A model generated the notes under the pieces. It was not told the DNA's origin. It saw only the letters and a program-made list of their open reading frames with translations, and did not search any database. A stretch of 64,000 nucleotides of DNA from the NCBI RefSeq assembly GCF_031769215.1, contig NW_026782978.1:62001-126000 (forward strand). The letters run 5' to 3'. Within the stretch, counting starts at the first letter, position 1; each line of letters opens with the position of its first letter. The translations under genes were made by a program, and so were the position numbers. The DNA is from Ylistrum balloti (taxonomy: Eukaryota). Shown one piece after another: positions 3,101-23,885 of the stretch.

Positions 3101-3740
3101 GCTCTCCCTGTATGTCGGTGTGTAGGAACCTTCACTCCCTGTATGTCGGTGTGTAGGAGCCTGCTCTCCCTGTATGTCGGTGTGTAGGAACATTCTCTCC
3201 CTGTATGTCGGTGTGTAGGAACCTTCACTCCCTGTATGTCGGTGTGTAGGAACATTCACTCCCTGTATGTCGGTGTGTAGGAACCTTCACTCCCTGTATG
3301 TCGGTGTGTAGGAACATTCACTCCCTGTATGTCGGTGTGTAGGAACCTTCTCTCGCTGTTTGTCAGTGTGTAGGAGCCTGTTCTCCCTGTACGTCGGTGT
3401 GTAGGAGCCTGTTCTCCCTGAATGTCGGTGTGTAGGAACATTCTCTCCCTGTATGTCGGTGTGTAGGAACCTTCACTTCCTGTATGTCGGTGTGTAGGAG
3501 TCTGTTCTCCCTGAATGTCGGTGTGTAGGAACATTCTCTCCCTGTATGTCGGTGTGTAGGAACCTTCACTCCCTGTATGTCGGTGTGTAGGAGCCTGCTC
3601 TCCCTGTATGTCGGTGTGTAGGAACCTTCACTCCCTGTATGTCAGTGTGTAGGAGCCTGTTCTCCCTGTACGTCGGTGTGTAGGAGTCTGCTCTCCCTGT
3701 ATGACGGTGTAGGAGCCTGCTCTCCCTGTATGACGGTGTA
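117..3740. repeat. 30-bp minisatellite, about 120 units, consensus CTCCCTGTATGTCGGTGTGTAGGAGCCTGCT, with several unit variants and an occasional longer variant containing TATAACGCAGCAAGTATC
   Basis: The tandem periodicity is directly visible. All long minus-strand ORFs here (HRHTG/YTPTY/HTDIQG) are translations of this unit. Confidence 0.97.
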
Positions 3741-4113
3741 AGTAGTAAGAAATTGCCGGTATAAGCGCATTTTCAAATTAGGGTTGAAAACCAACCACTA
3801 ACACATCTGACTCAACAAGCTCAAAACCAACCACAACAATGTTTAAACAGGGTCTAAATGACTTAAAGAAAAAACATTCTATAATGTAACGAGCGGCCTC
3901 GCAAGCTCGACTATCTCCTTATTGCTGACCCATGAATTGAACGTCTCTGGATAACCCTTCCACTTGACCAGCGACCTCGTTTTACCCTTCTTGACGACTT
4001 TTTCTATCCTGTATACCTCTTGGCCCGTCTTCTGCAACTCGGGTTCGTAGAAGGTACCCCGAATTTCTTCTCCGTTTTGGTCGCTAATCTTATACGTTAC
4101 GGGCGACGTGCGT
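3741..4113 (+). repeat. Polinton left terminal inverted repeat (373 bp)
   Basis: Reverse complement of 23365-23737, with 3 substitutions found by eye. Confidence 0.95.
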
Positions 4114-4812
4114 TGTACCGCCGTTATCGTGAATACTTCTTCCGTCCATCTTGATAGCCCTTCTCAAAAGTTTTCTTTATCTTGCTTATCCGCACGGCGT
4201 CTCCGACGGAAAACTTGGGGTGAATTATCCTAGGCTCATCATGGTTGGGGTATAGATTCATCCACACTCGGGTTTCATTTTTCTTCTTTCTGGCTTCGGT
4301 GGGTGTATGTTTTGTTGACGAGTGTGTCGTATTATTGTACTGATCGACAAGTTCGTCGAGCACATTGATGTAGAATTGGAGGAAAAATATTTCCACATTT
4401 TTTCCTTCATCGTTCCGATCCATCTCTCCACCACACTCGATTTTTCCTCGTTTTCAATCGAGTATAACTCGACTAAACTGTGCACGTCTTTATTGTAAAA
4501 CTCTTTGCCCTTATCCACCCAAATCTTTTTCGGTTTCCTCCCCTTGAGTATCTTTTTCAGTGCAGCTGCGACCGATTTCCCCGTTTTATCTTTTAATGGC
4601 ACTAACCAACCGTACTTGGAGAAAATGTCGATAACGGCAAGGAGATACTTGGTGCCGCGATTAAATTTCGAGAATGCCTGCATGTCTACCAAATCTGCGG
4701 CCCAAATTTCATCGATGCCATTAACACGTACCCTCCTTCTCTCAAACTTTTTTCTCATGGGTCTGTGTAATTCTTCAGCCAATGCTTTGAGTGCTGTAGG
4801 TGTTGAGCTCAT
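3879..4812 (-). pseudogene. Polinton retroviral-like (rve) integrase with C-terminal chromodomain; two frameshifts
   Basis: LAEELHRP start, DDE-type motifs WAADLVD / IWVDKGKEF / VVERW, then YNNTTHSS and KFSVGDAVRIS, then WTEEVF...YRIEKVVKK..SLVKWKGYPETFNSWV (chromo), with the stop at 3879-3881. The pieces lie in different frames (shifts near 4370 and 4150). Confidence 0.92.
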
Positions 4813-5290
4813 CTCCTCAACCTGCTGCTTTTTTCCCCTCCCACTCCCATTCCAAACCTCATCTTAGTGCCAATGATCTTGTCCACAATAGATCTATCCA
4901 ACCTCTCTCTAAGTGTAGGGTTAACAATTCCACCCAGTTCAGCTAACATATTCTTGTCACATACCCTATTTCTTGTATTAGTGTCCCTGTTTTTCAAGTA
5001 ACACACATCGTGATGGTATGCGGCATTATCAACCCTGTTGATAGGTTTACTCCATTCCTTTGGTGTGAGGTCTGGTTTCAGCCTTTTACCGAGATTAGTC
5101 CCAGGTCCGTAAAATTATGTCCCGGGAGATGCATTTCAAACGGTAAATGATTGATGGCTTCATTCACCATTGATCCGCCCACAAATTGTGTTTTTGTAGC
5201 CCCACACACGACACATTTACCCCGTTTTATATTTCGTCCATTTTTAGAAACAGTGTTTTGAACATCGGATGGAAAACGGTCTTGCTGGTA
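4809..5290 (-). pseudogene. Parvovirus-VP1u-like phospholipase A2 (PLA2X-type) with an N-terminal zinc-ribbon remnant; frameshifted
   Basis: Manual translation gives SKNGRNIKRGKCVVCGATKTQFV...HLPGHNFT/GPGTNLGKRL...INRVDNAAYHHDVCY...CDKNML. This has the Ca-loop GPG and the catalytic HD, with a frameshift near 5110. Confidence 0.85.
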
Positions 5291-5464
5291 GACGAGACGG
5301 CGTACGGCCTCGTCTTTTTCTCACGCCCGTTGGTCAGGTTGACAAATACGGTGACACCCCATTCTTCGAGGGCGGTAACGTCTTTTTGTGTAGGCCAGGC
5401 CCCGAATAGACCCGAGTTGCAGAAAAAACGAACATGTGACTGTGATATATTTCTTTTCCAACAT
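5290..5464 (-). pseudogene. 5-prime remnant resembling a viral dual-specificity/tyrosine phosphatase N-terminus
   Basis: The ATG at 5464 follows the element's TATA-like motif. Translation gives CSFFLQLG/LFGAWPTQKDVTALEEWGVTVFVNLT, recognised from memory. The catalytic HCxxGxxR motif is absent. Confidence 0.45.
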
Positions 5465-5501
5465 TATTTTTTATATAAAAAAATATATTTATATTAAAAA
5501 C

Positions 5502-6266
5502 ATGGAAGTGAAAGATTTATCGTGGAATGAAATGGTATCAAAACGGTTCAATCACAAGCTTCTGCCAAAAAGCATAAGGGGAGTGATTGTAGGCAAATCG
5601 GGGTGTGGTAAAACCACACTTTTGCTCAATCTTTTACTGAGACCGGGTTGGCTTGACTATAACAAGCTAGCAGTATTCGGCAAGAGTCTATTCCAACCCG
5701 AATACCGCATCCTCAAGAAAGCTTTTGTAGAGAAATTGCCAAAAGAAGCTATTATGCGCTTGTTTGACCTGCGCGATGAGGTAATGAGGTTAGATGTGTC
5801 ACCCGCAGCGCTTGTTGAGGCATGGTCTAAAGAGATTAAAGACAAGTCTGACATACAATGCTGCTTTTACGAATCTGCCGAAAACGTCCCAGACCCCCAT
5901 GATTTAAGTTCCGAAAACAAGAATTTAATGATATTTGATGATTTGCTGTTGGAGAAACAGAATTACTATATTCGTGGAAGACACAGCAATGTAGATTGTT
6001 TCTACCTTTCACAAAACTACTTCAAGCTACCACGCCAAACGATAAGAGAAAATGCAAACTTTATCTGCTTGTTCCCAGAAGACCTGAAGAATATCAACCA
6101 TATCAATAATGATCATGTGAGTCAAGACATGTCAAAAGATGAATTCAAAGGTCTGTGCAAGGTAGCATGGGAAAAACCACATGGGTTCGTAGTGATTGAC
6201 CTGACCAGTAACAGGCAGAATGGTAAGTACAGAAGTGGATTTGATACATTTTATATTCCGAGTTAA
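5502..6266 (+). CDS. A32/FtsK-HerA-like genome packaging ATPase
   Basis: Walker A GKSGCGKT, Walker B LMIFDD, and RGRH / YLSQNYF motifs. The start is placed at the ATG at 5502, after the TATATTAAAAA motif. Confidence 0.93.
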   Translation: MEVKDLSWNEMVSKRFNHKLLPKSIRGVIVGKSGCGKTTLLLNLLLRPGWLDYNKLAVFGKSLFQPEYRILKKAFVEKLPKEAIMRLFDLRDEVMRLDVSPAALVEAWSKEIKDKSDIQCCFYESAENVPDPHDLSSENKNLMIFDDLLLEKQNYYIRGRHSNVDCFYLSQNYFKLPRQTIRENANFICLFPEDLKNINHINNDHVSQDMSKDEFKGLCKVAWEKPHGFVVIDLTSNRQNGKYRSGFDTFYIPS

Positions 6267-6292
6267 AAAAAAAATATTATATTATAAAAAAA

Positions 6293-7051
6293 ATGGAACC
6301 AATACTTGAAAAAATAGCTGAAAACACTGAGCCTAAAAGCTCGTTTCAGATTGTCCTGAATAGCAACAAGACAAGATTTAGAACTAGGTTCAATCCACCA
6401 ATTCAACTCGACAAAAAGAAAAAGCACGAGATGGCACTCGTCATTCTCGAGACTTACTACTCTTTTCCAAACATTAATTATTTTAGATACTCACCCGATG
6501 GCGGAACAACGTGGGTCGAAATTTATTTACCAGAAGGTATCTATAACATCGATGACATTAACGACACAATTCAACAAAAGATGAGGCAGAATGGACACTA
6601 TGGCAGTGTCAATGAGGAATATTACGTTACAATTTCTGCAAACACGAACACACTAAAGACTGTCCTTATTTTAGATAATAATTACCAGGTAGACTTTAGG
6701 CATCCCAACTCCATTTCCAGTGTATTAGGATTTAACCACGACATTTACGCACTAGGATTTCAGGAGTCTGAAAATGTCGTCAACATTCTTAGTATTGTCA
6801 GCTTGCATGTTAATTTTGACAATATCTCAGGGAGCTACGTTAATGGAGCTTCACAACACACGATATACTCCTTCTTTCCAAATGTCACCCCTGGACATAA
6901 AATAGTTGAAACACCACGAAATTTGGTGTATCTTCCCGTGACACTAGACACCATACACAGTCTTGAGACTTCACTCACCGACCAAAATGGCACGCTGCTA
7001 AATTTAAGAGGAGATAATTTATCATTGAGGTTTCACATCAGACAAGTGTAA
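6293..7051 (+). CDS. Minor capsid protein (penton, single jelly-roll)
   Basis: 252 aa, beta-rich, with FNPPIQL, YYSFPNI, SGSYVNG..IYSFFPNV.PG.KIVE.P.NLVYLPV and LTDQNG..LNLRG motifs typical of Polinton pentons. It lies next to the ATPase. Confidence 0.82.
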   Translation: MEPILEKIAENTEPKSSFQIVLNSNKTRFRTRFNPPIQLDKKKKHEMALVILETYYSFPNINYFRYSPDGGTTWVEIYLPEGIYNIDDINDTIQQKMRQNGHYGSVNEEYYVTISANTNTLKTVLILDNNYQVDFRHPNSISSVLGFNHDIYALGFQESENVVNILSIVSLHVNFDNISGSYVNGASQHTIYSFFPNVTPGHKIVETPRNLVYLPVTLDTIHSLETSLTDQNGTLLNLRGDNLSLRFHIRQV

Positions 7052-7076
7052 TAAAAAAAAGATTCGTATATATAAA

Positions 7077-7661
7077 ATGTCACGATACACAAATGTTAAA
7101 TTGAATGTTTCAGAAGGGCAGAAACAAAAATTACGAGAGGCCCTTCAAAACGGTTGTCCTGTCAGTGTCCGTTTTGGTCACGAAGATTTGAACGGTGAAG
7201 ATGTCTTAGCCCTGACAGACAGACAAGTGAAGAGATTAGCCAAAGCCTATGAAGGTGGTAAAGGAATAACCATCAAAATGAGTAAAGCTCAACTCAAACA
7301 CAATATGAAAGTTGAGGGCGGTTTCCTTGGGATGCTTGCTGGTTTGGCAGCGCGTGCATTGCCTGTTTTGGCAAAGACGGTACTTCCAGCATTAGGCATT
7401 GGCGCTCTTTCTGGTTTGGCTAGTTCGGGAGTCCAAAAGGTGGTTGGGAACGGGTTGTATCTCAAGAAAGGAGGTTGTGTTTGCCAGATAGAGACAGACG
7501 GAAAAGGACTTTATTTAGGACCCGCGACCGGTTCGGGTCTAGAAGCCGTTGGTGATGGACTTTATATAAATAAAGAAAGGAGATGGTATAATGGGAAGGG
7601 TCTTATCCTGGGACCTAACAGCCCATTCAACAACATTCCGATCCTCGGTGCAATATTATGA
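7077..7661 (+). CDS. Putative virion core/membrane-active protein (adenovirus pX-like GGFL motif)
   Basis: VEGG-FLGMLAGLAARALP hydrophobic segment plus repeated GxG-LY/LI motifs that resemble adenain cleavage sites. Confidence 0.6.
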   Translation: MSRYTNVKLNVSEGQKQKLREALQNGCPVSVRFGHEDLNGEDVLALTDRQVKRLAKAYEGGKGITIKMSKAQLKHNMKVEGGFLGMLAGLAARALPVLAKTVLPALGIGALSGLASSGVQKVVGNGLYLKKGGCVCQIETDGKGLYLGPATGSGLEAVGDGLYINKERRWYNGKGLILGPNSPFNNIPILGAIL

Positions 7662-7734
7662 GTGTTTCATGCATACGTGGTCATGAACATATATATATAT
7701 TAAAATATATATATATATATATATTCAAAAAAGA

Positions 7735-8121
7735 ATGCCTGTTCATAAATTTGGTGTAAAACCGAAAAATTGGTATAACTTGCCAAGACAGCCGAAGACG
7801 ATTTACTGGATACCGGTAATGGATGTAAAACATCCTCCACAGAAGGTGCAACCAGTCACGTGGGAAATTTTCAATCAAAATAAACTTACCATCGGATCAA
7901 AAGAAAATAAAAAGATTAGATTAAGGTTTGGATTGAGGATGACTAGTGGTATGGTTTTAACGACACTAAAGCAAAGCCTTAAAATGAGGCAATGCAGTAT
8001 ACAAAATGAAGCCATTCTCGAAAGTGTTGATGATGTGGTGATAAACATCGCGAACAATTCGAACGGGGTTGTTGTCATTGAGGAAAACGAGCCTCTATGT
8101 CTCATACATTATATGACATAA
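7735..8121 (+). CDS. Hypothetical protein with a probable degenerate dUTPase-like fold and an MPVHKFG N-terminus
   Basis: Clean ORF with the TATA-like upstream motif. Its residue pattern parallels trimeric dUTPase strands, but catalytic motifs are lacking. Confidence 0.5.
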   Translation: MPVHKFGVKPKNWYNLPRQPKTIYWIPVMDVKHPPQKVQPVTWEIFNQNKLTIGSKENKKIRLRFGLRMTSGMVLTTLKQSLKMRQCSIQNEAILESVDDVVINIANNSNGVVVIEENEPLCLIHYMT

Positions 8122-8145
8122 AAAAAATCTCACACATATAAAAAT

Positions 8146-8784
8146 ATGGAAATCAACAAAGTGAATAATGATACGGCGCTTTATCCAAAGTTGCCAACAG
8201 CTCCCCCTGAAGATGAGGGACAAGGTTATCGTTTACAGAAAATTAACGAGATTCAGAGGATTCTCGAGGAAGAAAGAGAAAAGCGTGAGACCCTCAGCAA
8301 GAAGTACCACAGAGCCGTGAAGATAGTGGATAATGTCGATGTTGGTCTTATCGGCGTCATCATGGGGCTTGGCATCGGTGGTGTTAGCCTTTTATCTACG
8401 GTAGTAGCAGCACCGATTGTTGTCGTGATGGAGGGCGTTGCGCTTGCTACCGGAGCTCTGAGTATCGTCGGAAAATATGTGAATAGGAAGTGTGCGGCCA
8501 AAGCCGAAAAGCACGAAAAGATCAAGGTTTTGGCACAAGCAAAACTGAACACGATATCGTCGTACATTTCGAGGGCGCTAGCCGATAATGCAGTAAGTGA
8601 TGAGGAATTTCAATTCATACTAGCAGAGTTGGTCAAGTACCGCGAGATGAAGGAAGAAATAAGAAAGGTTTCCAAGAAGCACATGGACTATGACCTACAG
8701 CAATCCCTGATCGAACAGGGAAGGCAGGAAACCCGCGAGTCCTTCCGCAAGTTGTTCGAGAAAAATAATCGAGATGAAAAGTGA
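8146..8784 (+). CDS. Conserved adintovirus membrane protein (GasderminX-type)
   Basis: LYPKLPTAPP..YRLQKINEIQ..LE.E...R..L.KKY.R, a central hydrophobic hairpin, then KHEKIKVLAQAKLNTISSYISRAL.D..VSDEEF. The pattern is recalled from adintovirus genomes. Confidence 0.7.
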   Translation: MEINKVNNDTALYPKLPTAPPEDEGQGYRLQKINEIQRILEEEREKRETLSKKYHRAVKIVDNVDVGLIGVIMGLGIGGVSLLSTVVAAPIVVVMEGVALATGALSIVGKYVNRKCAAKAEKHEKIKVLAQAKLNTISSYISRALADNAVSDEEFQFILAELVKYREMKEEIRKVSKKHMDYDLQQSLIEQGRQETRESFRKLFEKNNRDEK

Positions 8785-8877
8785 GATGAAAATCGAGATG
8801 AAAATCGAGATGAAAAGTGAGATGAAAATCGAGATGAAAAGTGAGATGAAAAACGAGATGAAAATCGAGATAAAAAA
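8770..8877 (+). repeat. 12-bp tandem repeat GAGATGAAAA(TC/GT), 9 copies
   Basis: Units start at 8771, 8783 ... 8867. The first units overlap the last codons and stop of the 8146-8784 ORF. Confidence 0.93.
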
Positions 8878-8911
8878 TATTATCTTTAGAAACAAAAACA
8901 AAATTTCTAAA

Positions 8912-11900
8912 GGAGTATGTATGATTTGGCCCCCTCTTCAAATTTGATGAAATACCTATATTGAGTAAGGATAGTAACGTAATTAATGAATTGGGGGATT
9001 TTAGCATGTTTTCTTTCTCGGCGCATGCGTAGTGGCACTTCAAATATAGGTGTCACACCAGTATTTTTTAAGAGAAAAATGACAAAGCATTACAAAAAGA
9101 TTCTGTAACTTTTAATTATCATACAAATATGCTGCTTAATATTGATGTAATTAAATCACTTATGGAAGTTATCAACTAATGGCTTTTGCTAGCAAAGGCT
9201 TAAATTAAACTTTTAATATATTTACATTTGGTACCTTAGCAACGAATTATATCACATAGCAACGGCATGGCTATAAGATTTATTACTGGTAACAACATTT
9301 TCTATCATCCGATTTTGTGAAATGAAAACAAATCATAGCATATGTGACATAATTATATGGACTAACTTTTTTTACAAAGGTATTTTAATGCAAACATTTG
9401 GGAAGTGACAATAATTTCCCTAGCAACAGAATGTGTCGCATAGCAACAACAATACCTTATATTGATAACAACATTTTCTTTCCAGTTTCAAGATTTTTCT
9501 TCTGCTGTACTTAATGAAAACAAAATATTTCTCATGTTTTCAGTAGCTAAACTTTCTAATAAAGGTATCACAATATAGATATTAGAGTATTGATCAAAGT
9601 TGGTGCTCTAGCAAAGTATTCTGACACATGGCAAGAATATGACCTAAACTGTTATTTTTTTTATATTGTTTCAATGTTTTTTATTGTACGTTATTTAATG
9701 AAAACAGATCATTATCACTTTCCATGGACTAACCTTTTCTTACGAAATATGTATAATATAAACATTTTGATACAGATCAAAGTTAGTACCCTAGCAACAG
9801 AGTCTATCACATAGCATACCTGTAATTGTTAACATATTCTTTTCTGTTACAATATTTTTCCACTTGTTACTTGTTGAAAGCGAAACACTTATCACATAAT
9901 TTCATTGGTAAAACATTTTTGTTATAAAGGTATACTAGTGTACACAATATAAAAAACTGATTATTAATCAAAGTGTGCAACAAAGTCTATCACATAGCAA
10001 GAACATCACCTAAGCTGTTATCGGTTTCTATTTTGCTTCATACATCTGCACTGATGCTTTTGAAAGCAAAGCATATTCGAAGCATATAATCAATGTATAA
10101 CCTTTGGTTTTGTTCACAGAATTTAACAAACATGAAAATGAACAAGTGATAAGCGACTTCAAATTATATCTACTTTAAATACATGTAGTGTTACAGTTTA
10201 TTCCTCTGGATACTCCTCATCCGTGTCGGAATCTGTTGTTGGAATGTCAGCTGCATCAGCCAAAGACTTTGTCGAAATAGTCACTGCGCCAGATGATTCG
10301 CCTTGGAAGCGTTCATATCCTAGAAACCACAATGCACTTGCAATGTGGGCACAGCAACCGACCACTCTTGAGCCTACTTTACAAGTGCAGTACCAACCTT
10401 TGATGGGATCATCAGAAAGTGAGTCATACTCAATCCACAAAGAATGTGCTCTGCTGTTACAGTGTCGAGACTGTATTTTTAACTTGATCAGATTAGGGTT
10501 TTCTGAGAAGACCAGCAACTCATACAGTCCATCTTCAACACAGTGCTCCTTTGTATAACTTGGAGCCTGTTTAAGTTGATAAACTCCCATGGTGATGTTT
10601 CGTACGTCATCCATGGAAAGTTTAGGGAAGTCCATCAAGTCTTCTGCTTCCAGCTTTTGATAAACAGTTCTCTTATTTAGTAAGTTGTTGCTTTCCAAAA
10701 ATGCCTTCACTGTGTTTGGTTCCTTGGACTTTGCAAGCATTGCCCTGCAATGTGCTTCTGATGTTGCGTCAGTTTTCACAAGTGGTTCTTTAAACCTGTT
10801 GATAAGAGGACAGATGATTCTCACAAAGTCACCAATAGGAGGGATCAGGGTATTTGGAACAACTTTGTCAAACAGTTTCCATTGTTGTATCCTGCCATTC
10901 ACGCTTTCTACCACCCATCTTACTTTTGTGACTAAACCAGAAAGGTTCGCCTCTTCGGTGCTGTGCTGCTTGCAGCTTTTCTGAAGATAGAAGGGCATTT
11001 TCACATCGAAACCTCGGTCTTCTAGAAACCTCACAGCGTCCCTAAACCCCCTGTCTACAATGAATACGCCGCCGGGTTTGAACCACTTGCTAGCTTCCTC
11101 ATTTGCCCTAAGCATGTGTTTTGTAATGGAGGCATCGTTGTTTGAGCCATCAGCCAGGTAAGGTCCGAGCACATCCAGAATGTAGCCATCCGTTCCTACA
11201 AGCATCATTGGTTTAACGAGTGGTCTGTTCTTGTGCATAGAATAGGACCTCCTTTGGAATTTGTAGTCTGCACTCTTCTGGATGTAAACATAGGTGCCAT
11301 CAGCAACAACAATAGCCTCGTTTTCGCCTGGTTGGAACAATGATTTTGCTATATTTGTAGTGTGGTTTTGAACAAAGTCTCCATGAGATATGTGTTGAAA
11401 TCCAAGGTTATCTGGTACAAAATCTTCCACTAAGGCATTCCTTGTGCTGTTCACTATACGCTGGATTTGTGAATATGTTAAATGAAATAACACACCAATT
11501 AACTTGTTGGACAATCCACTACGTAATTTGAAGAGAAACACAGCAAGACATGTCCGGATTGACCTAACTGCTGAATTATTAAGTGATTTCAAATGAGTGA
11601 CAATTTCGTCAAAGTGCTGTTTGGTAAATCCTGTCAATGTTACATAATCTTCATTGGTTAAAAATATTGGCACATCGAAATTCAAATGTCCAGAATGTGT
11701 AGACAGCATCCTTCGAACTCCGGAGAGAAGACCTGTAATATCACTTCTTGAAAACCAGCCATTTGATTTCTTGGTTCCAAGTAATGCCAACGTATTTTCA
11801 TTCAGATAATTGTTCTCAATATGGCTCTCACAACATCTACTATGGGGGTGTATGAATATACCACATACTATGAAGGCCTGAGTAGTTCCTTGTTGTGGGA

Positions 11901-14108
11901 TGTTGGTTAAATGGTTTCTTTGGTTTGCATCTTTATGACATACAATACATGATTTATGAGATTTTGATATTGCGGGAAGGTTCAAATTAATAGTTTTAGG
12001 ACTCGACAGTGTCTTTTTCTTTGGTGGCTGAGAAATGTACTCGTCATCATTAGTATTTACAGGTGTCTGGTGAAATATTGGAAGACTCCTATACACTCGT
12101 GCCGTACATGCCCCGCATATCATGGCATTGCTACTCACGTCCCTGCAAACACATCGCTCCACATATCTTTTAAAGGCCACGCCAGGTGGGATATGCCTTC
12201 TAAAATTTGGTTTACACCTTTTGAAGCACATGCAACATGGGATGTCTTTTGGCATCTGGAAAGAAATATTTGATAAGTATATTAATACTTTATACCAACC
12301 ATATAAATCACAGTAACGTAGAAAAGTATAAAAAGAATATGTAAACATAAAAGTGACAACTTTTTATGTGGAACTCAAAAGAATGTGTGTTCTATACATT
12401 GTATAAGAAATTAAAAGTTGTAAACATAGATATTATATTCATATTTAAATTACATAACATATTTTTGTCATAATTGATCAATAATTACACATTATTTAGT
12501 GAATATGTTGTTAAGTTTTTTTACAATAAAATGAAGAAAACATAATAAAAAGGAACAGGCACCAGCACGACTGTAACTCACACAAATGTCGATAAATGTT
12601 TGTGAAATATGGATTGTCAACAAGATTTGAACTCACAGTTTAATTAATATTACAAATATTTTTTTCTTAATGTGAAAAAAATAAAATGTTGCTAAGCACT
12701 TTCAAGAACAGACTACATGGTTGCATTTTTAATTGAATTAAGAATAGGTATTCTTTTTATTTGAAATCAAAATAACTAAATAAAAAAGAGTTGTCAACAG
12801 CATTTGAAGTCAGAGCTTAATTAATTACACAAATAGTTTTAATTAATGTTAAAAATAATAATGTCTTGCAAAGTTCTCTCTAGAAAATATGTATTATAGT
12901 TTTGTATCTTAAATTGAATATAAAACAATAAAAAATAACAAAAAATAAAATTAATGATCATCAGGATTGGCAACCATAATTGCGGTCCTTATGCTCCTGA
13001 GCCAACCCTCATACCACTACACTACGGTACATCATATGCAACCGTAAGCTATTTTGAAAGTATATATACACCGACTATGTTGGCTTTCTCTCTGGCCGTT
13101 TCCAAGACAATAAGTATAAATAGATGCACTCTTTCATTTCTATTTTCCTTAGTTAGTAAAACGAATATTTTCAGACAGAAAGAAGACATTTTCAGTGGAC
13201 TTCAACAAGACACACAGTCTCTGTTGAAGTTTATAATGAATTACTCTTGTATTTATTGTGAGCTCGCCTTCAGACGACACTTCACCGTTTGTTCGGCGAT
13301 CAACATCAACAACATTCAAGCTGGGCTTGGTAGCACAGAATAATACTGTTTCAGAACTTTAAAAAGTATTGAGATACCTTTAAATAGATTTTATTGTTAA
13401 TAAATGACATTTGAATAAATTTTTTAACAAACATCACACAAAGTTAGTGGATTTTTTGCCGTCTACCTGTATTGGGGCATCTGTCAACCAGACGTAAAAC
13501 TGATGATGCAATCAAGTGCTGCAGACGTCCGATGAATAAAAAACTTCATTTTTTATATCACATCAGTTAAACATTTTTGCTAACAAGAATAAATCTTACC
13601 TTTCTTGGTTGTGAAAAATTAAGGAATTGTTGGTTTTAACTCCATCATTTGAGTGTTTCTGCTGCAGTAAACAAAAATATCGATAGCGGCGAAGTCCGTT
13701 TTCCGTGTTCCGGACCATATATTACACGCGATCTTGCATCAAAACGCCGAAAAATAATTTTAAAAACTATTTTTTTAATATGAGCGCAGTCTTGAACAAG
13801 TTTTTCCTTTTAACACAATGACTTTATTAAAATTTTTATTTTGTAGCATCAATATGAAACTTGTTCAAGCCTGCGCTCATGGTAAACTTCAGTAAAATGT
13901 ACCCACGAAATGGGGGAAATCACCGATTTTCGTGTTTTTTTGTCAATTTTCAAACAGCTATATTAAAAAATTGGTGATATTTTTTAAATCTTGAAAACAA
14001 TTCTAGAATCATGGACACTTCCATTATTAAATGTCTTCACTATTTTGATTTTCTGAGACAGTTTTTCTTATATTGGGGGTGCATAGGTACCCAAACCATA
14101 CATACTCC
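8912..14108 (-). mobile_element. Cut-and-paste DNA transposon (IS5-like DDE_Tnp_4; PIF/Harbinger-ISL2EU lineage) nested in the Polinton
   Basis: 18-bp TIRs GGAGTATGTATGATTTGG / CCAAACCATACATACTCC (1 mismatch), flanked by TTTCTAAA on both sides (8904-8911 and 14109-14116). The interior is AT-rich and holds one large transposase ORF. Confidence 0.88.
10198..12255 (-). CDS. Intact DDE transposase (about 685 aa): N-terminal Cys-rich region, HTH, DDE core and C-terminal SWIM zinc finger
   Basis: VADGTYVYIQKS, IVDRGFRD and RWVVESVNG give the D-D-E triad; WYCTCKVG..VGCCAH is the SWIM finger. The ATG at 12255 directly follows the acceptor TTTCTTTCCAG. The ORF is uninterrupted. Confidence 0.9.
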   Translation of the reverse strand: MPKDIPCCMCFKRCKPNFRRHIPPGVAFKRYVERCVCRDVSSNAMICGACTARVYRSLPIFHQTPVNTNDDEYISQPPKKKTLSSPKTINLNLPAISKSHKSCIVCHKDANQRNHLTNIPQQGTTQAFIVCGIFIHPHSRCCESHIENNYLNENTLALLGTKKSNGWFSRSDITGLLSGVRRMLSTHSGHLNFDVPIFLTNEDYVTLTGFTKQHFDEIVTHLKSLNNSAVRSIRTCLAVFLFKLRSGLSNKLIGVLFHLTYSQIQRIVNSTRNALVEDFVPDNLGFQHISHGDFVQNHTTNIAKSLFQPGENEAIVVADGTYVYIQKSADYKFQRRSYSMHKNRPLVKPMMLVGTDGYILDVLGPYLADGSNNDASITKHMLRANEEASKWFKPGGVFIVDRGFRDAVRFLEDRGFDVKMPFYLQKSCKQHSTEEANLSGLVTKVRWVVESVNGRIQQWKLFDKVVPNTLIPPIGDFVRIICPLINRFKEPLVKTDATSEAHCRAMLAKSKEPNTVKAFLESNNLLNKRTVYQKLEAEDLMDFPKLSMDDVRNITMGVYQLKQAPSYTKEHCVEDGLYELLVFSENPNLIKLKIQSRHCNSRAHSLWIEYDSLSDDPIKGWYCTCKVGSRVVGCCAHIASALWFLGYERFQGESSGAVTISTKSLADAADIPTTDSDTDEEYPEE

Positions 14109-14969: not shown

Positions 14970-14975
14970 AAAATA

Positions 14976-15400
14976 ATGTTTATAGCAAAGAATCATGGAT
15001 TTAGAAGACAGTATGTCTATGGCGGTGCTGGAATGTTTGATAGCATCGCAAGTTTTTTCACTAGATTATTTACTAGCAATGCTGCGAAACAGATTGCCTC
15101 TACCGCTCTAGATGCTGGTAAAAGCGTTGCTAAGGAAGTTGGGAAGAAAGCTATGGATGCTGGAAAGACTGCAGCTCTTGATGCTGGAAAGAATTTCCTT
15201 GAGAAAGGAGTGCGCGGTCTCGCACGTAAAGCTCTTACACCCAAATCTCGAGCAATTCTACAACGGCGAAGCAGTCATCCCCAGTTGATCAGAATATCCA
15301 TTCACTAATAGATGGGAGCGGAATGCAGCAACAGAGGGCGATTGCGATTCAAGACCTCGTCAAAAGATTGAATCAAGGATCTGGTCTAAAATTGATTTAA
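14976..15400 (+). pseudogene. Amphipathic virion protein (cupiennin-like or pVI-like); one frameshift
   Basis: VYGGAG-MFDSIASFFTRLF amphipathic helix and an Ala/Lys-rich region. The second frame continues ...IDGSGMQQQRAIAIQDLVKRLNQGSGLKLI to the stop at 15400. Confidence 0.6.
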
Positions 15401-15425: not shown

Positions 15426-15783
15426 ATGGCTATCGAATTCAAGCGTCACGATTACCAAACACGCGATTCATGTATTTTGGTCAAGAATGCAAGGATCAGC
15501 CTTGAAGGGTGTGAATTCCTTGAAACTGAAGATGTAAATGGGCATCATAGAGGTGTTGTCTTGAAACTACCCGAAGAGAAGGTAGACAGGATGAAGGAGA
15601 TTGAGGGAGAGGTTAATGATTATCTTTATAACGGGTTTAGGCAAGATAAAGCTTGTCTACGAAAACAAAATTTGTGCAATGTATTGGAAATGTACTCCTA
15701 AAGAACACTTTGATAGTATTGTGTTGTCGGACGTGTATGTTAATAATGCTGGCAGGGCGCTCGCCCATTTGTGGGTTCTGTAA
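15426..15783 (+). pseudogene. Hypothetical protein split by a frameshift
   Basis: ORFs 15426-15701 and 15601-15783 overlap and join near 15635. The start follows the TATA-like motif. Confidence 0.5.
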
Positions 15784-15845: not shown

Positions 15846-17140
15846 ATGATGAACATTCTAAATTTTACTGAGGCTCCCATGAAGGATGAGAGCATCGAAG
15901 AATACGAACACTATGAGTACGATCCGATTACCGGTACGAATCTCAATAACCCAGGTGAGCTCAGGATCAATATTGAAACACAAGATCTGTTTACTCACCC
16001 AAGCGAGAGCTATCTGATCATCGAAGGGCGTCTGACAAAAACTGACGGGACCGCTTACGCAAACGATGATAACGTTACACTGACGAATAATGCTCTCATG
16101 TATCTTTTCAGCAACATCAAGTACCAGCTTTCAGGACAGGAGATTGAATCTCTCTTTCATCCAGGACAGGGTACAACGATGCTTGGTCTGTTGAAATATC
16201 CAGATGACTTCTCCAAGTCGCAGGGTTTGAATCAATTGTGATACAAGGACACATCAGCTGCAGCATCTGCAGCTGCAGCAGCAGGCAATGCCGGATTTAG
16301 CGTTCGCCAATCCTATATAACCAAATCTCCTGATCCAAAGGGCACATTTAGTTTCAGAGTACCACTCAAGCACATCTTTGGATTTTGCGAAGACTATGAC
16401 AAAATTGTGTATGGTATGAAACAAACCCTGACTCTGGTGCGGAAAACGGACAACGATGCGATCTTCAGGAATGCAAATGTTGATGATGGGAAAATTACCT
16501 TCGAAAAGGTGTCGTGGTTTATGCCTCATGTACTACCCGCAGATGCTGAAAAATTTCAGCTTTACAAGACACTCGATTCAAATGAGCTTCTACCCGTAAT
16601 GTACAGGATCAGGCAATGTGATTACATCTCCATACCACAGTCAACTAGCTTCACCTGGAGACTATCTGTCAAATCAGCGCCTGAAAGACCGCGCTATATC
16701 ATTGTCGGTTTCCAAACTGACAAAGACGGTGACCAAGAGCAGAATCCTTCCATCTTTGACAACGTCAATGTGAGGAATATATTTGTCATGCTAAACTCGG
16801 CTAGATACCCCGCAGTTGACTACAACCTCTCCTTTCCCAAACAGCAATTCAGTCGGGCGAACGGTGATGTAGCAGCCTTCAGGTCCAAGTTTTACAACAT
16901 GGACGAGTTGGTGTCAAACCCCAACATCACCCCGCCGATTACAAGACACTTTTCCCACTGTTTGTGTTCGACGTCAGCAAGCAGAGTGAGCGACTGAAGA
17001 CCGCAGTCACTGACATCCAAATAAAAACTCAGTTTAATGCCAACGTGCCAGCGGGTACCGAAGCATTTGCTGTTGTGATTAGTAACAAGATGATAAACTT
17101 CAAGACCGATGGGAAGAAGGTAAACGTTGTATATAGCTAG
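15846..17140 (+). pseudogene. Major capsid protein (double jelly-roll, hexon/PY); premature TGA at 16239-16241 and a frameshift near 16935
   Basis: DESIEEYE..EY.P.TGTNLN.PG..RI.IE.QD.F..P.ESYL, VPLKHIFGFCEDY.K..YG.K..L.LVR, PRYIIVGFQT and LF.FDVSKQSE motifs. Confidence 0.9.
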
Positions 17141-17198: not shown

Positions 17199-17516
17199 AT
17201 GTTGAAACTGTCTGAATTGAAAACAATTCTTCGTGAGAATAAAATCAAAGGTTATTCTCATTGCGGCAAGAAGCGGCTGATCGAGCTGTTGAAAGGAAAG
17301 GAATTAATACCAGAGGAACCACCCAAACCAGTGAAGACAAAGAAAGAGGTAGATCCAATGGCAGTTAGAAATAACCCCAAACCTGTTGTGTTGAGGGATG
17401 TTGATACTGGAGAGGAGATTACATTTCCATCCATTTATAAGGCATCTCAATTCATAGACAAATCCTCGAGGATAATAACCTTTTGGGATGGAAGGGTGTG
17501 GAAAAGCAAGATGTAA
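17199..17516 (+). CDS. Small putative DNA-binding protein (Rho-N/HeH-like helix pair plus NUMOD1-like HTH)
   Basis: LSELKTILRENKIKGYS..KK.LIELL and TGEEITFPSIYKASQFI patterns. Confidence 0.55.
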   Translation: MLKLSELKTILRENKIKGYSHCGKKRLIELLKGKELIPEEPPKPVKTKKEVDPMAVRNNPKPVVLRDVDTGEEITFPSIYKASQFIDKSSRIITFWDGRVWKSKM

Positions 17517-17622
17517 GCAAAAAAAAATGTTGTATGTGGGTTAACATATACAACATTCATGAAAGAATAATTTTTTTTTGAAAATGACTTATAGAAAAAA
17601 AAATCTATATATAATAAAAACA

Positions 17623-20600
17623 ATGAGTCTTTTCAGAAGAATTAGTAATGCGGCTATGAATGCTGCAACAAACATTGCTAGAGGAGCAAGACGACTGGCA
17701 TCGGCTTTCATCCCACAGAGGAATCCTCCAGATCAAAATTTCTTAGATGCAGATGTACCTAGCATCAATGTGCCGACTCTTCAAACTGTCCTTATCCCTA
17801 CAACCAGGGACAAGGTTAAACAAAAGGTAAATAAATCGATCAAAGCTGCTGTAGATTGGGTTGAATGGCTGCATGATGCAGACAGAGAAGTTGTTAAGAA
17901 GGCCCCATCGAAATTAAAAGCCTTGAAGGAAAAAGTAGATGCTTTATTCAGAAAGCAGCAGATGTTTGAAATCAGAGAGACAAGATCTGCTCTGAGGAAA
18001 TTTACGACTCAATATACCATAGATGGCAGAGAGGGGTTTGATGCTCAATCGTTTCTCAACACAGCCCGACAAAATGTAGTTAACCTCTTGAGAGGAATCC
18101 GAGGCACTAAGGTAAAGCTAATTCTTAGATGTAACATGGAAAAAGTGAACCTTGTCAGTGCCTCGGAAACAATCGTAGAGCCTGCAGCCTTTCACTCTAA
18201 TGTCGAGATTAACCTCGATGGAACAGATGCAGATGAGCTGTATGATGCAATGGTTGATAGAGTCATGGAGGCCATGGCGACATTCCAGTTGCGAGGCAGC
18301 AACTGGACATTTAAATCTATCATTGCCATTGAAATTCATACAGTTGCTTATGAACCGTTGAGGGGGGGCTCTTACATCCCTACTCCGGAGGCCCTTGCAC
18401 ATCCTAAAATGGGAGTGATCAATGTAAAAAATGATGACAACAGATGCTTCCTCTGGGCACTGGCTCGAGCATTACATCCCGTAGAACGTGATGCTTGCCG
18501 CATAACTAAGATGCTCAGAATGCAAGCAGAAAAACTCAACATGGACGGTATTGATTACCCAGTTAGTCTTAAGACAATAGATCATGTCGAGAAGCAAAAC
18601 CCAGACATATCTATTACTGTCTTTGGCTATGAAACTAGTGTTCACCCCCTCCGAATAAGCAAACACGTTGATAGGGTAACAATAAACCTTTTATTGATCA
18701 CTGATGGGGAAAAGCAGCATTACTGCGTCATCAAAGACAAGAGCCGTTTGTTGTCCAGCCAACCGGAAACCACCAACACAAAAATTATTACTGTCTCAGA
18801 TGTTTGAACCCCTTCTACTCACAGGAATCGTTGAATAAGCACATGGAATACTGTTATTCAAACGAGGCCGTCAAGATAGAGATGCCAGAAGAGGGTTCGA
18901 CCATTTCGTTTGCACATACACAAGTCCATGAGAGTGCCGTTCACAGTGTATGTTGACTTTGAATCTTTCATCAAACCCGTAGATACGTGTGAACCGTGTC
19001 CGGGAAAGAGCTACACGAAGAAATACCAGAAACACACCCCATCGAGCTTTTGTTACAACATCAAATGCTTTGATGATGGTGTCTTCTCTAAAGATCCGGT
19101 TACCTACACCGCGAAAACTGACGACGAAGATGTCTCCCAAATATTCGTAGAAATGTTGGAGAAAGACATCAAAGAAATTGGCAAAATCCCTGCGAAACTA
19201 ATGATTTTTGGGGAAAATGACCGCAAACAATTCCAAAAGACGACAAAGTGCTGGATCTGCGAAGGTGAGTTCGGTAAGGATGACAAGAAGGTGAGAGATC
19301 ACTGTCACGCTACTGGGAAATACCGAGGTGCAGCTCACAATAGTTGTACCTTGCAGTACAAGAAGCCGAAGTTCACTCCCGTGGTGTTCCACAATCTGAG
19401 CGGCTATGACAGTCATCTGTTCGTCAAGAACCTCGGTAAAACTGAGGGGAACATCAACTGCATCCCGAACAACGAGGAAAAGTACATCAGCTTCACCAAG
19501 GAGGTTGTTGTCGGTTCTTATACTAGCAAGGACGGGAAAGAGAAGGATGTTAAGCACCAGCTCAGATTCATCGACAGCTTCAAGTTCATGGCCTCTAGCC
19601 TGGATAAGCTGTCCGGTAATCTGGATCAGGACTGCTTCACTAACACTTCGAAGTACTATAACGGAAAACATCTAGACTTACTAATGAGAAAGGGTGTCTA
19701 CCCATATGAACTCAAAAGACTAGATGAAACAGCCCTTCCACGAAAAGTAGCGTTCTACTCCAGACTCATTGGAGAAGGGATTAGTGACGATGCACAAACT
19801 GTGTGGAAAGAGTTTGGCATGAAGTCACTCAGGGACTACCACGAACTGTACAACCAGTCGGACGTGTTGCTCTTGGCAGATGTCTTTGAGAACTTTAGAG
19901 ACGTCTGCATCAAGAACTACGATCTTGACCCTGCCTGGTATTATACAGCGCCTGGACTAGCATGGGACGCTGCCTTGAAAATCACCGAAGTGAAGTTGGA
20001 GCTGTTATCAGATCCAGACATGTTGCTCATGGTGGAGAAAGGTATCAGAGGCGGGATATCGATGATCAGCAACAGATATGGCAAAGCAAACAACCCATAC
20101 ATGGGTGAAACATTCAACCCCCATGATCCTGCGAAGTATATTGCCTATTTGGATGCCAACAATCTCTATGGTTGGGCCATGAGCAAACCGCTCCCTACAC
20201 ACGGATTCGGGTGGATGACAGACAGTGAACTGGACTCTTGGAAGAACCACAGCTGTATACTGGAGGTTGACCTTGAATATCCAAAGGATCTGCATGATCT
20301 CCACAATGACTATCCGCTCGCTCCAGAAAGTCTCAAAGTCCATAATGTGGAAAAGCTTATTCCCAATCTCAATGACAAAACTAACTATGTCATTCACTAC
20401 GAGAACCTCAAACTATACGAGGGCTTGGAAATGAAGATTACAAAGATCCACAGGGGCATCAGGTTCGAGGAAAGTGCATGGTTGAAGCAATACATCGACC
20501 TGAACACCAATCTCCGAGCAGAGGCAAACAATGAGTTTGAAAAGGACTTTTTCAAGGTCATGAACAACTCTGTTTTCGGAAAGACTATGGAGAACATTAG

Positions 20601-21333
20601 GAGCCGAGTGGATATCTGACTAGTCAACGACGAGACAAAAGCGAAGAAGTTGGCAGCAAAACCCAATCTTAAACATTGCATCATCTTCGACGAGAACCTG
20701 GTTGCCGTACATATGAAAAAGACGAACCTGAAGTTCAACAAGCCCGTTTATCTCGGGATGTGCATCCTCGATCTGAGCAAGACGTTGATGTACGACTTCC
20801 ATTACAATTACATGAAGACAAAGTACGGAGAAAAGTCAAAACTCCTGTTTACCGATACCGATTCCTTGGCATACGAAATCCAGACGGAGGACTTTTACAA
20901 GGACATCTCTGGTGACGTAGCAGCCAAGTTTGACACCAGCAACTTCCCAAAGGATCACCCATCGGGCATCGAAGTCGGTCGTAACAAGAAAGTGGTGGGG
21001 ATGTTCAAGGACGAGGCAGGAGGTAAGATCATCCGAGAATTCGTGGGATTGAGAGATAAGTTGTACAGTTACAAGTTGCTTGAGGGGTATGAGGAGAAGA
21101 AGTGTAAGGGGGTGAAAAGGTCCGTTGTCAGAAAGAGTATTTCGTTTGAGGATTACAAGAAATGTTTGTTTACGGGTGAGGATCAGTTGCGAAAGATGAA
21201 CGTCATCAGGAGCCACTGTCATGATGTGTACACCGAAGAAATTAACAAAATAGCTCTTTCGGCAAATGACGACAAGCGAATCATCCTCCAGGACGGGATG
21301 CGCACACTAGCCCACGGACACTTTAAACTTTAA
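17623..21333 (+). pseudogene. polB: Protein-primed family B DNA polymerase (pPolB) with N-terminal terminal-protein/vOTU-like region, zinc finger and EndoVII-like insert; two frameshifts and one nonsense codon
   Basis: Exonuclease motifs VYVDFES, FHNLSGYDSH and YNQSDV. Polymerase motifs YLDANNLYGWAM, KVMNNSVFGKT, FTDTDS and KLYSY/KKCKGV. Also NDDNRCFLW..HY, CLRC..H..C and DHCH. Breaks near 18770 and 18910, and TGA at 20617-20619. Confidence 0.95.
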
Positions 21334-21348
21334 TAGATATATATAAAA

Positions 21349-21687
21349 ATGAACATTTCAGTGGGAAAAGTCGTTCTGCCAAATAAACCGCTAAGTAATA
21401 TCGAGTTAACGAGGGCTGCAGATGAATTGAAAATACCAAATTTTAGAGGAGTATTTCTGTGCGATACACTTCCGAAGAGACCAAAGAGAAATGAATGTGG
21501 GATTCTGAATTTAGATTCTAGTGACGGAGGAGGAACGCACTGGACCGCCTGGTACAAACAAGGAAAAAATAAATACTATTTCGATAGCTATGGCATACAA
21601 CCTCCGAATGAGTTGATATCCTATTTGAAGCGAGGGATCTTGTATAATAATATATATATTAAAAAACATGCAAATTTGGATATATGA
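21349..21687 (+). pseudogene. Adenain-like maturation cysteine protease, C-terminally truncated
   Basis: FRGVF..D.LP, ILNLDSS.GGGTHW.AW and YFDSYG supply the catalytic His and Asp. The sequence breaks after LYN, before the Q..CG catalytic Cys motif. Confidence 0.88.
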
Positions 21688-22226
21688 CGTCAGAGTACAA
21701 CATCCCACCACCAGAACCCGGTGTGTCTCTGTCGTACGTCAATAAGAATTTCCAAAGAAAAGCTGATGTGACTAAATTAGAGATGGATATCCAGGATCTA
21801 AGAGTCAAGTATTCTCAGCTATTAATGAATACACAAAAATTACAAAGAAAAATGAATAAAAAATATATAACTATCTGGGCTGAAGAAAAAGGTGGACTGG
21901 TGAAAGGGAAGTACGAATACTCGTTCGGTGATGGTGCAACAGGTAAAAACGCTGGCTATACCGTGCTAGCACCATCTAAAGTTTTGAAAATAGGTACGTC
22001 GGTTACAACACCAGAATCCACTCCCGTAGAGGCTGGTGTAGTCCTCGTGTTAAATGGTAGTAAAACTCAATGTAAAATTTTAAAGCCACAAGGAGAATTT
22101 AATCACGTTTCGGATGTGAGAGGAATCAGTTTAAATGTAGGTGATGTGCTCAACTTTGTAACCAACGTAACAACAACAAAAATTACCGGAGCTATTATTT
22201 CACTTCTATTAGAAATTAATTTATAA
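21684..22226 (+). CDS. Putative spike/decoration protein (coiled coil plus beta-sandwich head)
   Basis: Shares its N-terminal module with the 22248 gene. It has a heptad-rich segment followed by a beta-rich domain. The original start at about 21668 appears to have lost 8 nt. Confidence 0.55.
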   Translation: MTSEYNIPPPEPGVSLSYVNKNFQRKADVTKLEMDIQDLRVKYSQLLMNTQKLQRKMNKKYITIWAEEKGGLVKGKYEYSFGDGATGKNAGYTVLAPSKVLKIGTSVTTPESTPVEAGVVLVLNGSKTQCKILKPQGEFNHVSDVRGISLNVGDVLNFVTNVTTTKITGAIISLLLEINL

Positions 22227-22247
22227 AAATATACATATAAAAAAAGA

Positions 22248-23365
22248 ATGCCTGTTCACAAATTTGGATATATGACGTCAGAGTACAACATCCCACCACC
22301 AGAGCCCGGTGTGTCTCTGTCGTACGTCAATAAGAATTTTCTACGAAAGAATGGGTCTACCGTAACTGGTTCCATCGATATGGCGGGAAATACGTTAACG
22401 AACGTGTCGGATCCTGTGAACGCGCAAGACGTCTCTACTAAGAATTATGTCGATGGTCAAATTGTTAACCCTACACCCGTAACCACCCTCGTTACAGCAG
22501 GTTTGTATAATCTGGATGATACGTATCATATTATTCTAGCAGATACCACCAGCGGAAACGTTGTGCTAAAATTTCCGCCAACAGCTACCGTCGGTAAAGA
22601 ATACTTAGTTATTCACGAAAAATACGGTAATCAATGTTCAATGTGGGATAATGAGAATAGAATAGTAAATCCGTATGACAGTACTGATACATCTGTTGGG
22701 ACTTTACAATCTTTGATTGTTTTTGGTGGAGAATCGAGAACATTTACGTGGAGTGGTAAACATTGGATGGTTACTTCAAAGTCCATTCGTGAGGTAGCTA
22801 GAGTTAGTAAGAGAGGAGACACTATGACTGGATCTTTGCATATGGGAGGCCATGAAATAACTGGCCTATCCTTGGCTCAACCCTCGACTGATGGTCACGC
22901 CGCAACAAAAGGTTATGTGGATGCTGTTTTAGTTGACTCGTGGAGAATGTATGGTCCATATACTTATTTGCACACTCAAGCAGAAACTATCACCCCATCA
23001 ACTTTACCTTTTATAACACTAACGATCTCAAATGTAAAGGCTGGGGATTATTTAGAGGTTTTCGTCTACCTGGGTGTGGATTATAGGAGTTACTATTTTA
23101 TTGGTGATTTGGTGATGGTAGACGTTGAGACGGGGGATGGGTTGTTTGAAAACGCGCCCCTGATAAGTCAGTTTGCGGCTGATAGTAAAGGTACTAAGGT
23201 AAAAAAAAAACGGCCTACATGATGTATATGTCACCCGTTCCTATTACTCGTGATGCAAATGCTGTATGCACAATTAAGGTGAAAGCAAAAACAATATCAC
23301 CAAGAGTATATCTAGAAAACCGGTGTAAATTATATGTGAAGCACATGAACAAATTTACTGCCTGA
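22248..23365 (+). CDS. Fibre-like protein with phage tail-fibre-type repeats; the frame changes at the A10 run at 23201-23210
   Basis: LTNVSDPVNAQDVSTKNYVD, ADTTSGNVVLKFP and KRGDTMTGSLHMGGHEITGL..P..DGHAATKGYVD. The -1 frame stays open for about 50 codons to the TGA at 23363-23365. Confidence 0.7.
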
Positions 23366-23737
23366 CGCACGTCGCCCGTAACGTATAAGATTAGCGATCA
23401 AAACGGAGAAGAAATTCGGGGTACCTTCTACGAAGCCGAGTTGCAGAAGACGAGCCAAGAGGTATACAGGATAGAAAAAGTCGTCAAGAAGGGTAAAACG
23501 AGGTCGCTGGTCAAGTGGAAGGGTTATCCAGAGACGTTCAATTCATGGGTCAGCAATAAGGAGATAGTCGAGCTTGCGAGGCCGCTCGTTACATTATAGA
23601 ATGTTTTTTCTTTAAGTCATTTAGACCCTGTTTAAACATTGTTGTGGTTGGTTTTGAGCTTGTTGAGTCAGATGTGTTAGTGGTTGGTTTTCAACCCTAA
23701 TTTGAAAATGCGCTTATACCGGCAATTTCTTACTACT
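23365..23737 (-). repeat. Polinton right terminal inverted repeat (373 bp)
   Basis: Inverted copy of 3741-4113. It ends ...TTCTTACTACT and is followed by the GGTGTA TSD. Confidence 0.95.
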
Positions 23738-23885
23738 GGTGTAGGAGCCTGCTCTCAATGTATGACGGTGTGTAGGAGCCTGCTCCCCCTGCATGTCGGT
23801 GTGTAGGAACCTTCTCTCCCTGTTTGTCAATGTGTAGGAGCCTGCTCACCCTATATAACGTAACAAGCGTCCGTGTGTAGGAGGC
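23738..23885. repeat. Distal, degenerate remainder of the same 30-bp minisatellite, beyond the Polinton insertion
   Basis: GGTGTAGGAGCCTGCTCTC... units resume immediately after the right TIR and decay by about 23885. Confidence 0.9.

Follow-up and report, generated by a model that had tools for sequence, protein, structure and literature searches.

Animal Polintons, or Mavericks, combine genes for a polymerase, an rve integrase, a packaging ATPase, a double jelly-roll capsid protein and an adenain-like protease between inverted repeats, extend over about 15 kb, and occur as degraded germline copies. In each of these respects they are matched by an element residing in a 64,000-nucleotide stretch of the Ylistrum balloti genome (contig NW_026782978.1, positions 62,001 to 126,000 of the forward strand), which is referred to in its entirety as the window and within which all positions below are numbered. 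The gene set of this element agrees with the definition of adintoviruses (PMC8502044), a group now designated Eupolintoviridae (PMC12451622), and adintoviruses of mussel and oyster have already been mapped (PMC8502044 supplement). As a preliminary description of this DNA had concluded, the ends, the target site duplication and the gene set establish that the element is a Polinton of the Eupolintoviridae (formerly Adintoviridae), class Polintoviricetes. The provirus as such is unremarkable, degraded Polintons being common in animals and known from bivalves. We regard the window copy as very probably a full-span, disabled provirus, with about 14.8 kb of viral DNA bounded by a 6-bp duplication, into which a 5.2-kb Spy-type transposon subsequently inserted. 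It represents a family that likely replicated by protein priming, integrated by means of its rve integrase and packaged its DNA into capsids.

The copy spans positions 3741 to 23737 (19,997 bp), with the termini AGTAGT...ACTACT. Its terminal inverted repeats are identical at 370 of 373 positions, with three mismatches, which bears out the figure of about 99% given in the preliminary description. Polintons end in short terminal repeats of AG type and have target site duplications of 6 bp, and the hexamer GGTGTA abuts both ends of the element, the flanks agreeing at length 6 only among the lengths of 4 to 10 that were compared. The host DNA at this site is a 31-bp minisatellite whose unit contains the hexamer once (CGGTGTAGGAG is found at four places within 1-3740), and the repeat array resumes past the element, indicating that the duplication was produced by the insertion. 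The boundaries originally proposed, comprising the inverted repeats, the AGTAGT ends, the exact six-base flanks and the interrupted minisatellite, all agree with these observations. Both repeats are 30 bp shorter near 3870 than those of most sister copies, a form that is present as a joint in all four independent runs examined, and repeat length varies from about 320 to 390 aligned bases among six two-ended sisters. The loss common to both repeats, together with this variation in length, fits a replication process in which one end may be copied from the other.

Protein families were assigned using Pfam with curated cut-offs, supplemented by PHROG and PDB comparisons. About 17 gene slots are present (Table 1), 16 of which are common to the sister copies and one of which is a phosphatase remnant, consistent with the gene number estimated previously. 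The nearest database proteins are at 62-65% identity for the capsid protein (680 homologues), up to 68% for the full-length polymerase and 83% for a conserved 194-aa protein, and thus none is near-identical. The capsid and polymerase searches yielded no named reference members. Pattern matching detected the Exo I-III, Pol A-C and KxY motifs in the polymerase pieces, together with a Cys motif on which the OTU-like assignment is based; no match to this polymerase was found among phages.

The preliminary description regarded the copy as complete, which does not hold for its content. Positions 8912-14108 are foreign transposon sequence, amounting to 5.2 of the 20 kb or a quarter of the span, and comparison with the sisters reveals two losses in the window, one of about 560 bp near 5265 and the other of about 130 bp near 21650. 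Its estimate of about a dozen lesions was accurate, as we count approximately 11 frame-changing indels within genes and two in-frame stops, and 10 of the 17 gene slots are broken. The integrase has been disrupted by indels near 4140 and 4365, and the PLA2 gene has a frame break near 5100 and has lost its 5′ end to the deletion near 5265. Further breaks interrupt the cupiennin-like open reading frame (ORF) near 15255, the capsid gene near 16920, the polymerase near 18750 and 18900, the protease near 21660 and the fibre gene near 23205, while the stops lie near 16240 in the capsid gene and near 20618 in the polymerase. The protease motifs containing His, Asp, Gln and Cys are visible in a sister ORF, but the segment bearing the catalytic Cys was removed from the window by the deletion near 21650. 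With the integrase, polymerase, capsid and protease all broken, the window copy is incapable of completing a life cycle alone, and the disabled state reported earlier is confirmed.

Some of these lesions might be attributed to the assembly rather than to the genome, in which case the provirus would be near-intact. The fibre break falls within a run of 10 A residues, two intergenic differences occur in runs of eight identical bases, and the window's own alleles are not seen in short-read contigs, a data type that discards rare variants. Nevertheless, the fibre break is the only frame-changing indel within a gene that lies in a 10-base run; the other 10 adjoin runs of six bases or fewer, several are more than two bases long, and the two stops and two large deletions are also present. 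In addition, the 721-codon transposase frame of the nested transposon has stayed open in this copy as well as at 3 of the 14 sister loci retrieved, which opposes a high rate of indel error. The single break in a long run and the clean transposase frame indicate that the breaks are likely to be real mutations, and we consider it highly improbable that most of the lesions are assembly errors.

Young copies or fragments of this Polinton occur on 13 other contigs, and an older subfamily, of about 80-87% identity, is found on four. Five independent DNA runs from two studies contain 65-66% of the sampled words, demonstrating that the family is real outside the assembly, and contigs from four of the five listed runs cover all 30 bins of positions 14000-24400. 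The listed holders of sampled words include no RNA runs, a result that is uninformative on expression either way. Substitution distances between the window copy and 11 young sister rows are 1.5-2.4%, private changes amount to 0.2-1.0% per copy (0.80% in the window), and the terminal repeats of the window copy have diverged by 0.40% per branch (95% interval 0.08-1.18). If a rate of 2-5 x 10^-9 changes per site and year is assumed, the insertion would date to one to a few million years ago, and the earlier proposal of a fairly recent insertion is upheld by both repeat and private-change divergence.

The private changes comprise 159 silent substitutions, 409 replacements and 25 changes to stop, with an N/S of 0.74 compared with a neutral expectation of 0.76-0.88 (p 0.30). 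Comparison with the older subfamily gives a dN/dS of 0.18, indicative of purifying selection. This low ratio, combined with near-neutral change on the tips, points to genes that were selected during an active phase and have drifted since. An open capsid frame occurs at 4 of the 13 contigs with a capsid match, and the polymerase frame (1,258 aa) is open in 1 of the 11 young copies in which most of the gene is covered. The preliminary suggestion that intact relatives may exist is therefore borne out for single genes in some sisters, but no copy that we viewed has all core genes open, each having at least one core gene broken or missing. Among six two-ended sisters, the target duplication is exact at two, matches at five of six bases at two and is lacking at two. 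The copy at locus C397 has the same right flank as the copy at C875 and a different left flank, which might reflect either ectopic recombination or an assembly chimera. Two further sister loci (C525 and C998) are rearranged, containing inverted and duplicated blocks.

From family biology (PMC11071308; PMC8502044), a life cycle can be proposed in which protein-primed linear replication would start at the AGTAGT terminal repeats, the terminal protein would be released by the OTU-like domain of the polymerase, and the two repeats would be kept alike by copying of one end from the other. The rve integrase would insert the element with a 6-bp stagger, and the ATPase would pack DNA into a capsid composed of the major capsid protein, penton and fibre. 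Maturation of the particle would be the task of the protease, and the PLA2 and amphipathic proteins would help it to cross membranes at entry. One integration burst may have seeded about 14 loci that decayed afterwards.

Several observations weigh against a family that packaged itself in this manner. No virion, transcript or free genome has been seen, no listed short-read contig piece crosses the element-host junctions of this copy, the protease matches to S273R and adenain are weak, and the penton candidate lacks Pfam, PHROG and PDB support, with no match at E 0.001. Moreover, one of the two sisters lacking a duplication has a flank in common with another locus, so that some copies are recombinant or misassembled. 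The element might instead be a purely intracellular self-synthesizing transposon in which the virion genes are passengers, a reading compatible with the finding that no relative occurs in IMG/VR and that all listed holders of sampled words are DNA runs of two studies. If the virion genes were passengers, however, it would be difficult to account for dN values in the virion module that are well below dS in comparison with the older subfamily (0.043/0.28 for the ATPase, 0.092/0.51 for the penton candidate and 0.059/0.25 for the protease; the capsid lies outside this comparison), which argue for selection while the lineage was active. We therefore regard the transposon reading as improbable and favor a disabled provirus. 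The preliminary hint of an exogenous virus was not substantiated, as nothing points to a free virus and the 194-aa protein has no relative in IMG/VR. The only named homologue, at 77% identity, is from Mya arenaria, making a mollusc host of the family plausible.

The gap of about 560 bp near 5265 cuts a CX5R phosphatase gene that the preliminary description did not list. About 200 bp from its 5′ end survive in the window, whereas the part encoding the catalytic motif, deleted here, is kept in two sisters and carries the loop HCKGGHGR. Judging from its family matches (PF22784, E 9e-14; solved PDB phosphatases, E 1e-7; DSP/PTP families) and from the CX5R loop, the predicted product of this cargo gene is a dual-specificity/PTP phosphatase. 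The gene is intronless and lies between the PLA2 and ATPase genes. DNA and protein searches of the genome, in which only the best candidates were scored, located it at three loci only and revealed no close host paralogue; seven young copies and both of the older copies that cover the slot contain a short spacer there instead. The three carriers group together with 91% bootstrap support, and the other copies likewise form a clade (99%). All 10 of the variants that mark the carriers fall inside 5022-6339, and none of 200,000 random draws was as tight. Clustering within a 1.3-kb block is indicative of a recombined block, and suggests that this three-copy sub-lineage gained a giant-virus-type phosphatase by recombination while the lineage was active. 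An in-frame start is missing in an identical manner from all three carriers, which makes it likely that the gene had already died in their parent; the window copy would subsequently have lost most of it.

Of 72 phosphatase homologues, five are 55-63% identical to the Polinton protein and the remainder 36-49%, apart from one short match at 55%. Many relatives are fused to a NADAR domain, which neither the Polinton form nor any of its five closest relatives possesses. In IMG/VR, 27 loci contain relatives at 38-44% (one short match, 57%), and the names of three contigs among the relative loci bear the giant-virus tag GVMAG. The 24 neighbour proteins from eight relative loci include RNR, XRN1, Rpb2, topoisomerase II and Bro-N, which are typical of giant viruses, and no Polinton gene was found beside the relatives at 47 loci from viral and metagenome contigs. 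In a tree that retained 93 of 96 rows and included 16 of the 27 IMG/VR loci, the Polinton phosphatase joins the five unplaced proteins (96) and then 15 of the 16 IMG/VR rows (99 SH-aLRT).

These relationships allow more than one history for the gene. It might be an old accessory gene that was lost twice, or might derive from another Polinton, with a giant-virus origin that is ancient. The five closest homologues, which group with it in one clade and share its length and architecture, may themselves belong to Polintons, and its AT-rich upstream style is the same as that of its neighbours. The carriers keep the state of the older subfamily at 6 of the 10 diagnostic sites, and the recombined block may therefore come from another Polinton. 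The branch to the relatives is long (0.53), which fits an old gene and also speaks against a recent direct capture. Such a history is harder to reconcile with the absence of the gene from the older subfamily at both covering loci, where the spacer is the same short one found in young non-carriers, and with a GC content of 0.51, which is above that of nine other element genes (0.38-0.47). Furthermore, for each of the five homologues the longest contig falls in the range 3-84 kb, compared with megabase contigs for most capsid homologues. We consequently give an old or borrowed accessory gene slightly less than an even chance.

The case for gain from a giant-virus-type source is weakened in turn by the provenance of the tree, which was obtained by a quick search that did not run to completion, was rooted at its midpoint without any eukaryotic outgroup, and contains a query whose composition was flagged. 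It is weakened further because the five closest proteins are without placed genome context, leaving the direct donor unseen, and because the preference for a gain over two losses is a parsimony argument drawn from a single older subfamily. As sources of the recombined block, gain by recombination and an old or other-Polinton origin stand about even. Direct recent capture of the phosphatase from a giant virus is unlikely. We are similarly doubtful that marine-invertebrate Polintons swap genes with giant viruses in the same cells, as virophages do, with the phosphatase having been caught within the last 2% of divergence.

The transposon nested within the Polinton resembles Spy elements, which are reported from molluscs and have AAA and TTT flanks without a duplication, GGANNNNG ends, one DDE ORF and a length of about 5 kb (PMC4122938; PMC4482050). 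Its ends, GGAGTATG, fit this terminal consensus, and it contains a single DDE ORF within about 5 kb. The genome contains 18 other matches, and both ends were seen at 9 of 14 fetched loci, all nine of which have AAA and TTT as flanks and lack a duplication. Spy transposases are described as having D(79-80)D(44-62)E spacing and an N-terminal HTH, with zinc fingers absent in most (PMC4122938; PMC4482050). The nested transposase differs in its D-81-D-48-E arrangement, the first spacing being 81 rather than 79-80, and in Cys-rich motifs at both its N- and C-terminus; HTH_Tnp_4 was matched below cut-off. Of 10 sister Polinton loci, an anchor located the insertion site in 8, where it is empty, and the other two align across it. 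The transposon family is young, its copies being 94-98% alike, and four loci have the same two internal deletions and likely represent a non-autonomous derivative. Eight bases occur at both sides of the nested transposon (8904-8911 and 14109-14116), twice relative to the empty site in sisters, making this an atypical insertion. A 2-, 4- or 6-bp duplication generated by the transposon was considered and rejected, as no other copy of its family has one.

Table 1. Positions of the Polinton, its predicted genes, its insertion site and the nested transposon within the window (ORF, open reading frame; TSD, target site duplication).
Feature	Positions	Strand	Basis or remarks
31-bp host minisatellite, insertion target	149..3739, continues 23739-23856	.	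unit contains GGTGTA once
Left TSD, GGTGTA	3735..3740	+	exact 6-bp copy
Left terminal inverted repeat	3741..4113	+	373 bp, begins AGTAGT, includes integrase 3′ end
rve integrase with C-terminal chromodomain	3879..4812	-	PF00665, PF00385 above cut-off; open sisters encode 315 aa
PLA2-domain gene, likely entry protein	4809..5266	-	PF08398 above cut-off
Accessory CX5R dual-specificity phosphatase, 5′ remnant	5263..5464	-	comparison with sister copies
A32-like packaging ATPase, open	5502..6266	+	PF04665 above cut-off; short in-frame loss near 5955
Candidate penton (minor capsid protein), open	6293..7051	+	size, position, beta-rich prediction only
Conserved 194-aa protein, open	7077..7661	+	3,558 homologues, best 83%
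128-aa ORF, open	7735..8121	+	without family match
212-aa ORF, hydrophobic hairpin, open	8146..8784	+	without family match
Nested Spy-type (PHIS) DNA transposon	8912..14108	-	about 5.2 kb; ends GGAGTATG...CATACTCC; AAA and TTT flanks
DDE transposase of nested element, open	10198..12363	-	721 codons; PF13359 E 2e-14
Conserved Polinton ORF, about 285 codons	14112..14969	+	5′ end disrupted at nested transposon insertion
Amphipathic cupiennin-like ORF	14976..15400	+	146 aa in sisters; PF08102 E 0.01, below cut-off
Small ORF, no known family	15426..15780	+	frame breaks near 15585 and 15630
Double jelly-roll major capsid protein	15846..17140	+	PF21738 E 2e-39; 431 aa in open sisters
Small basic protein, likely DNA-binding, open	17199..17516	+	weak PHROG matches only; end shorter than in sisters
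Protein-primed B-family DNA polymerase	17584..21333	+	motifs, homologues
Adenain-like maturation protease	21349..21687	+	weak PDB matches to ASFV S273R, adenain, E 0.011-0.12
180-aa ORF	21684..22226	+	N-terminal stretch in common with fibre gene
Fibre-like protein, phage tail-fibre repeats	22248..23365	+	PHROG tail-fibre families E 9e-10 to 1e-5
Right terminal inverted repeat	23365..23737	-	373 bp
Right TSD, GGTGTA	23738..23743	+	exact 6-bp copy

Among the gene products listed in Table 1, the penton candidate may be a single jelly-roll penton; its single-sequence model (pLDDT 41) is too poor for fold comparison. The 194-aa protein has an amphipathic middle and Gly-rich motifs, which we take to resemble adenoviral protease sites, and is likely a virion core or membrane-active protein. 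Fold searches with this protein gave no BFVD match at E 0.001, a best PDB Z of 3.5, which is uninformative, and no gasdermin match. The gene is open in all 10 of the young copies that cover it. Host co-option of the gene was considered and rejected, as its private changes (9 silent versus 25 replacing) are neutral like those of other genes. The fibre gene and the gene preceding it have a duplicated N-terminal stretch in common (21663-21760 and 22227-22348), and the first seven residues of the 128-aa ORF are the same as those of the fibre. It is possible that this stretch represents a common capsid-anchoring peptide in the three proteins. The end of the 212-aa ORF extends into a 12-bp tandem repeat (8767-8876).

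Elsewhere in the window, we observed an exon belonging to a host gene for a POT/PTR2 peptide transporter (48257-48952, plus strand; PF00854), a fragment of a LINE reverse transcriptase (47111-47530, minus strand; PF00078) and another PHIS-type transposase fragment (30417-30860, plus strand; PF13613). A 55-bp satellite of more than 238 copies occupies 50217-64000, reaching the window end. The 31-bp minisatellite (149-3739) gives rise on the minus strand to long open frames in which His-Thr-Gly words recur, and these are likely a side effect of the tandem array. No Rfam match was found anywhere in the window.

Taken as a family, these Polintons constitute a compact data set on the death of a germline virus, encompassing one burst, neutral decay, numerous small deletions, nested transposons and changing repeats. 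An open question is whether animal Polintons depend on or encounter giant viruses; a cargo gene with exclusively giant-virus-like placed relatives, gained by part of a young family, would, if that history is correct, provide a datable trace of contact, with individual copies recording the arrival, death and removal of the phosphatase.

Within the adintoviruses, Alphadintovirus is marked by a PF03175-type polymerase and a PLA2X gene, and Betadintovirus by a divergent polymerase together with GasderminX and cupiennin genes (PMC8502044). The present element mixes a PLA2 gene of the former kind with a weak cupiennin-like ORF of the latter, and PF03175 is matched neither by the window polymerase pieces nor by the full-length sister polymerase, whereas two of six close homologues do match it. 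These conflicting markers leave the genus open. The phosphatase slot was not found in the main-text listing of PMC8502044 or in part of its supplement. More broadly, no report of a phosphatase in an animal Polinton was found in open-access text, including PMC11131425 (coral Polintons) and PMC8502044 with part of its supplement, although one could still appear in a figure, a larger table, a preprint supplement or a subscription paper.

Variable cargo is a feature of nematode Mavericks, which carry WASP proteases and KRMA kinases, thought to be host-derived, between the left repeat and the integrase, and for which recombination between copies and nested transposons have been described (10.1101/2022.07.12.499685). 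The Polinton family examined here also has an enzyme cargo that varies between copies and lies near the integrase end, shows recombination between copies, and contains nested DNA transposons. It differs in that its cargo is an intronless phosphatase situated between the PLA2 and ATPase genes, with placed relatives that are viral, and is broken in all three carriers. Nucleases inserted within Polinton polymerases are likewise known, including HNH in nematode and oomycete polymerases and VSR in mollusc pPolB2 (10.1101/2023.08.22.554363). The polymerase of the present Polinton also contains a nuclease domain, but in this case it is endonuclease VII-like, and the presence of the same insert in all six homologues scanned indicates that it is common to this branch.

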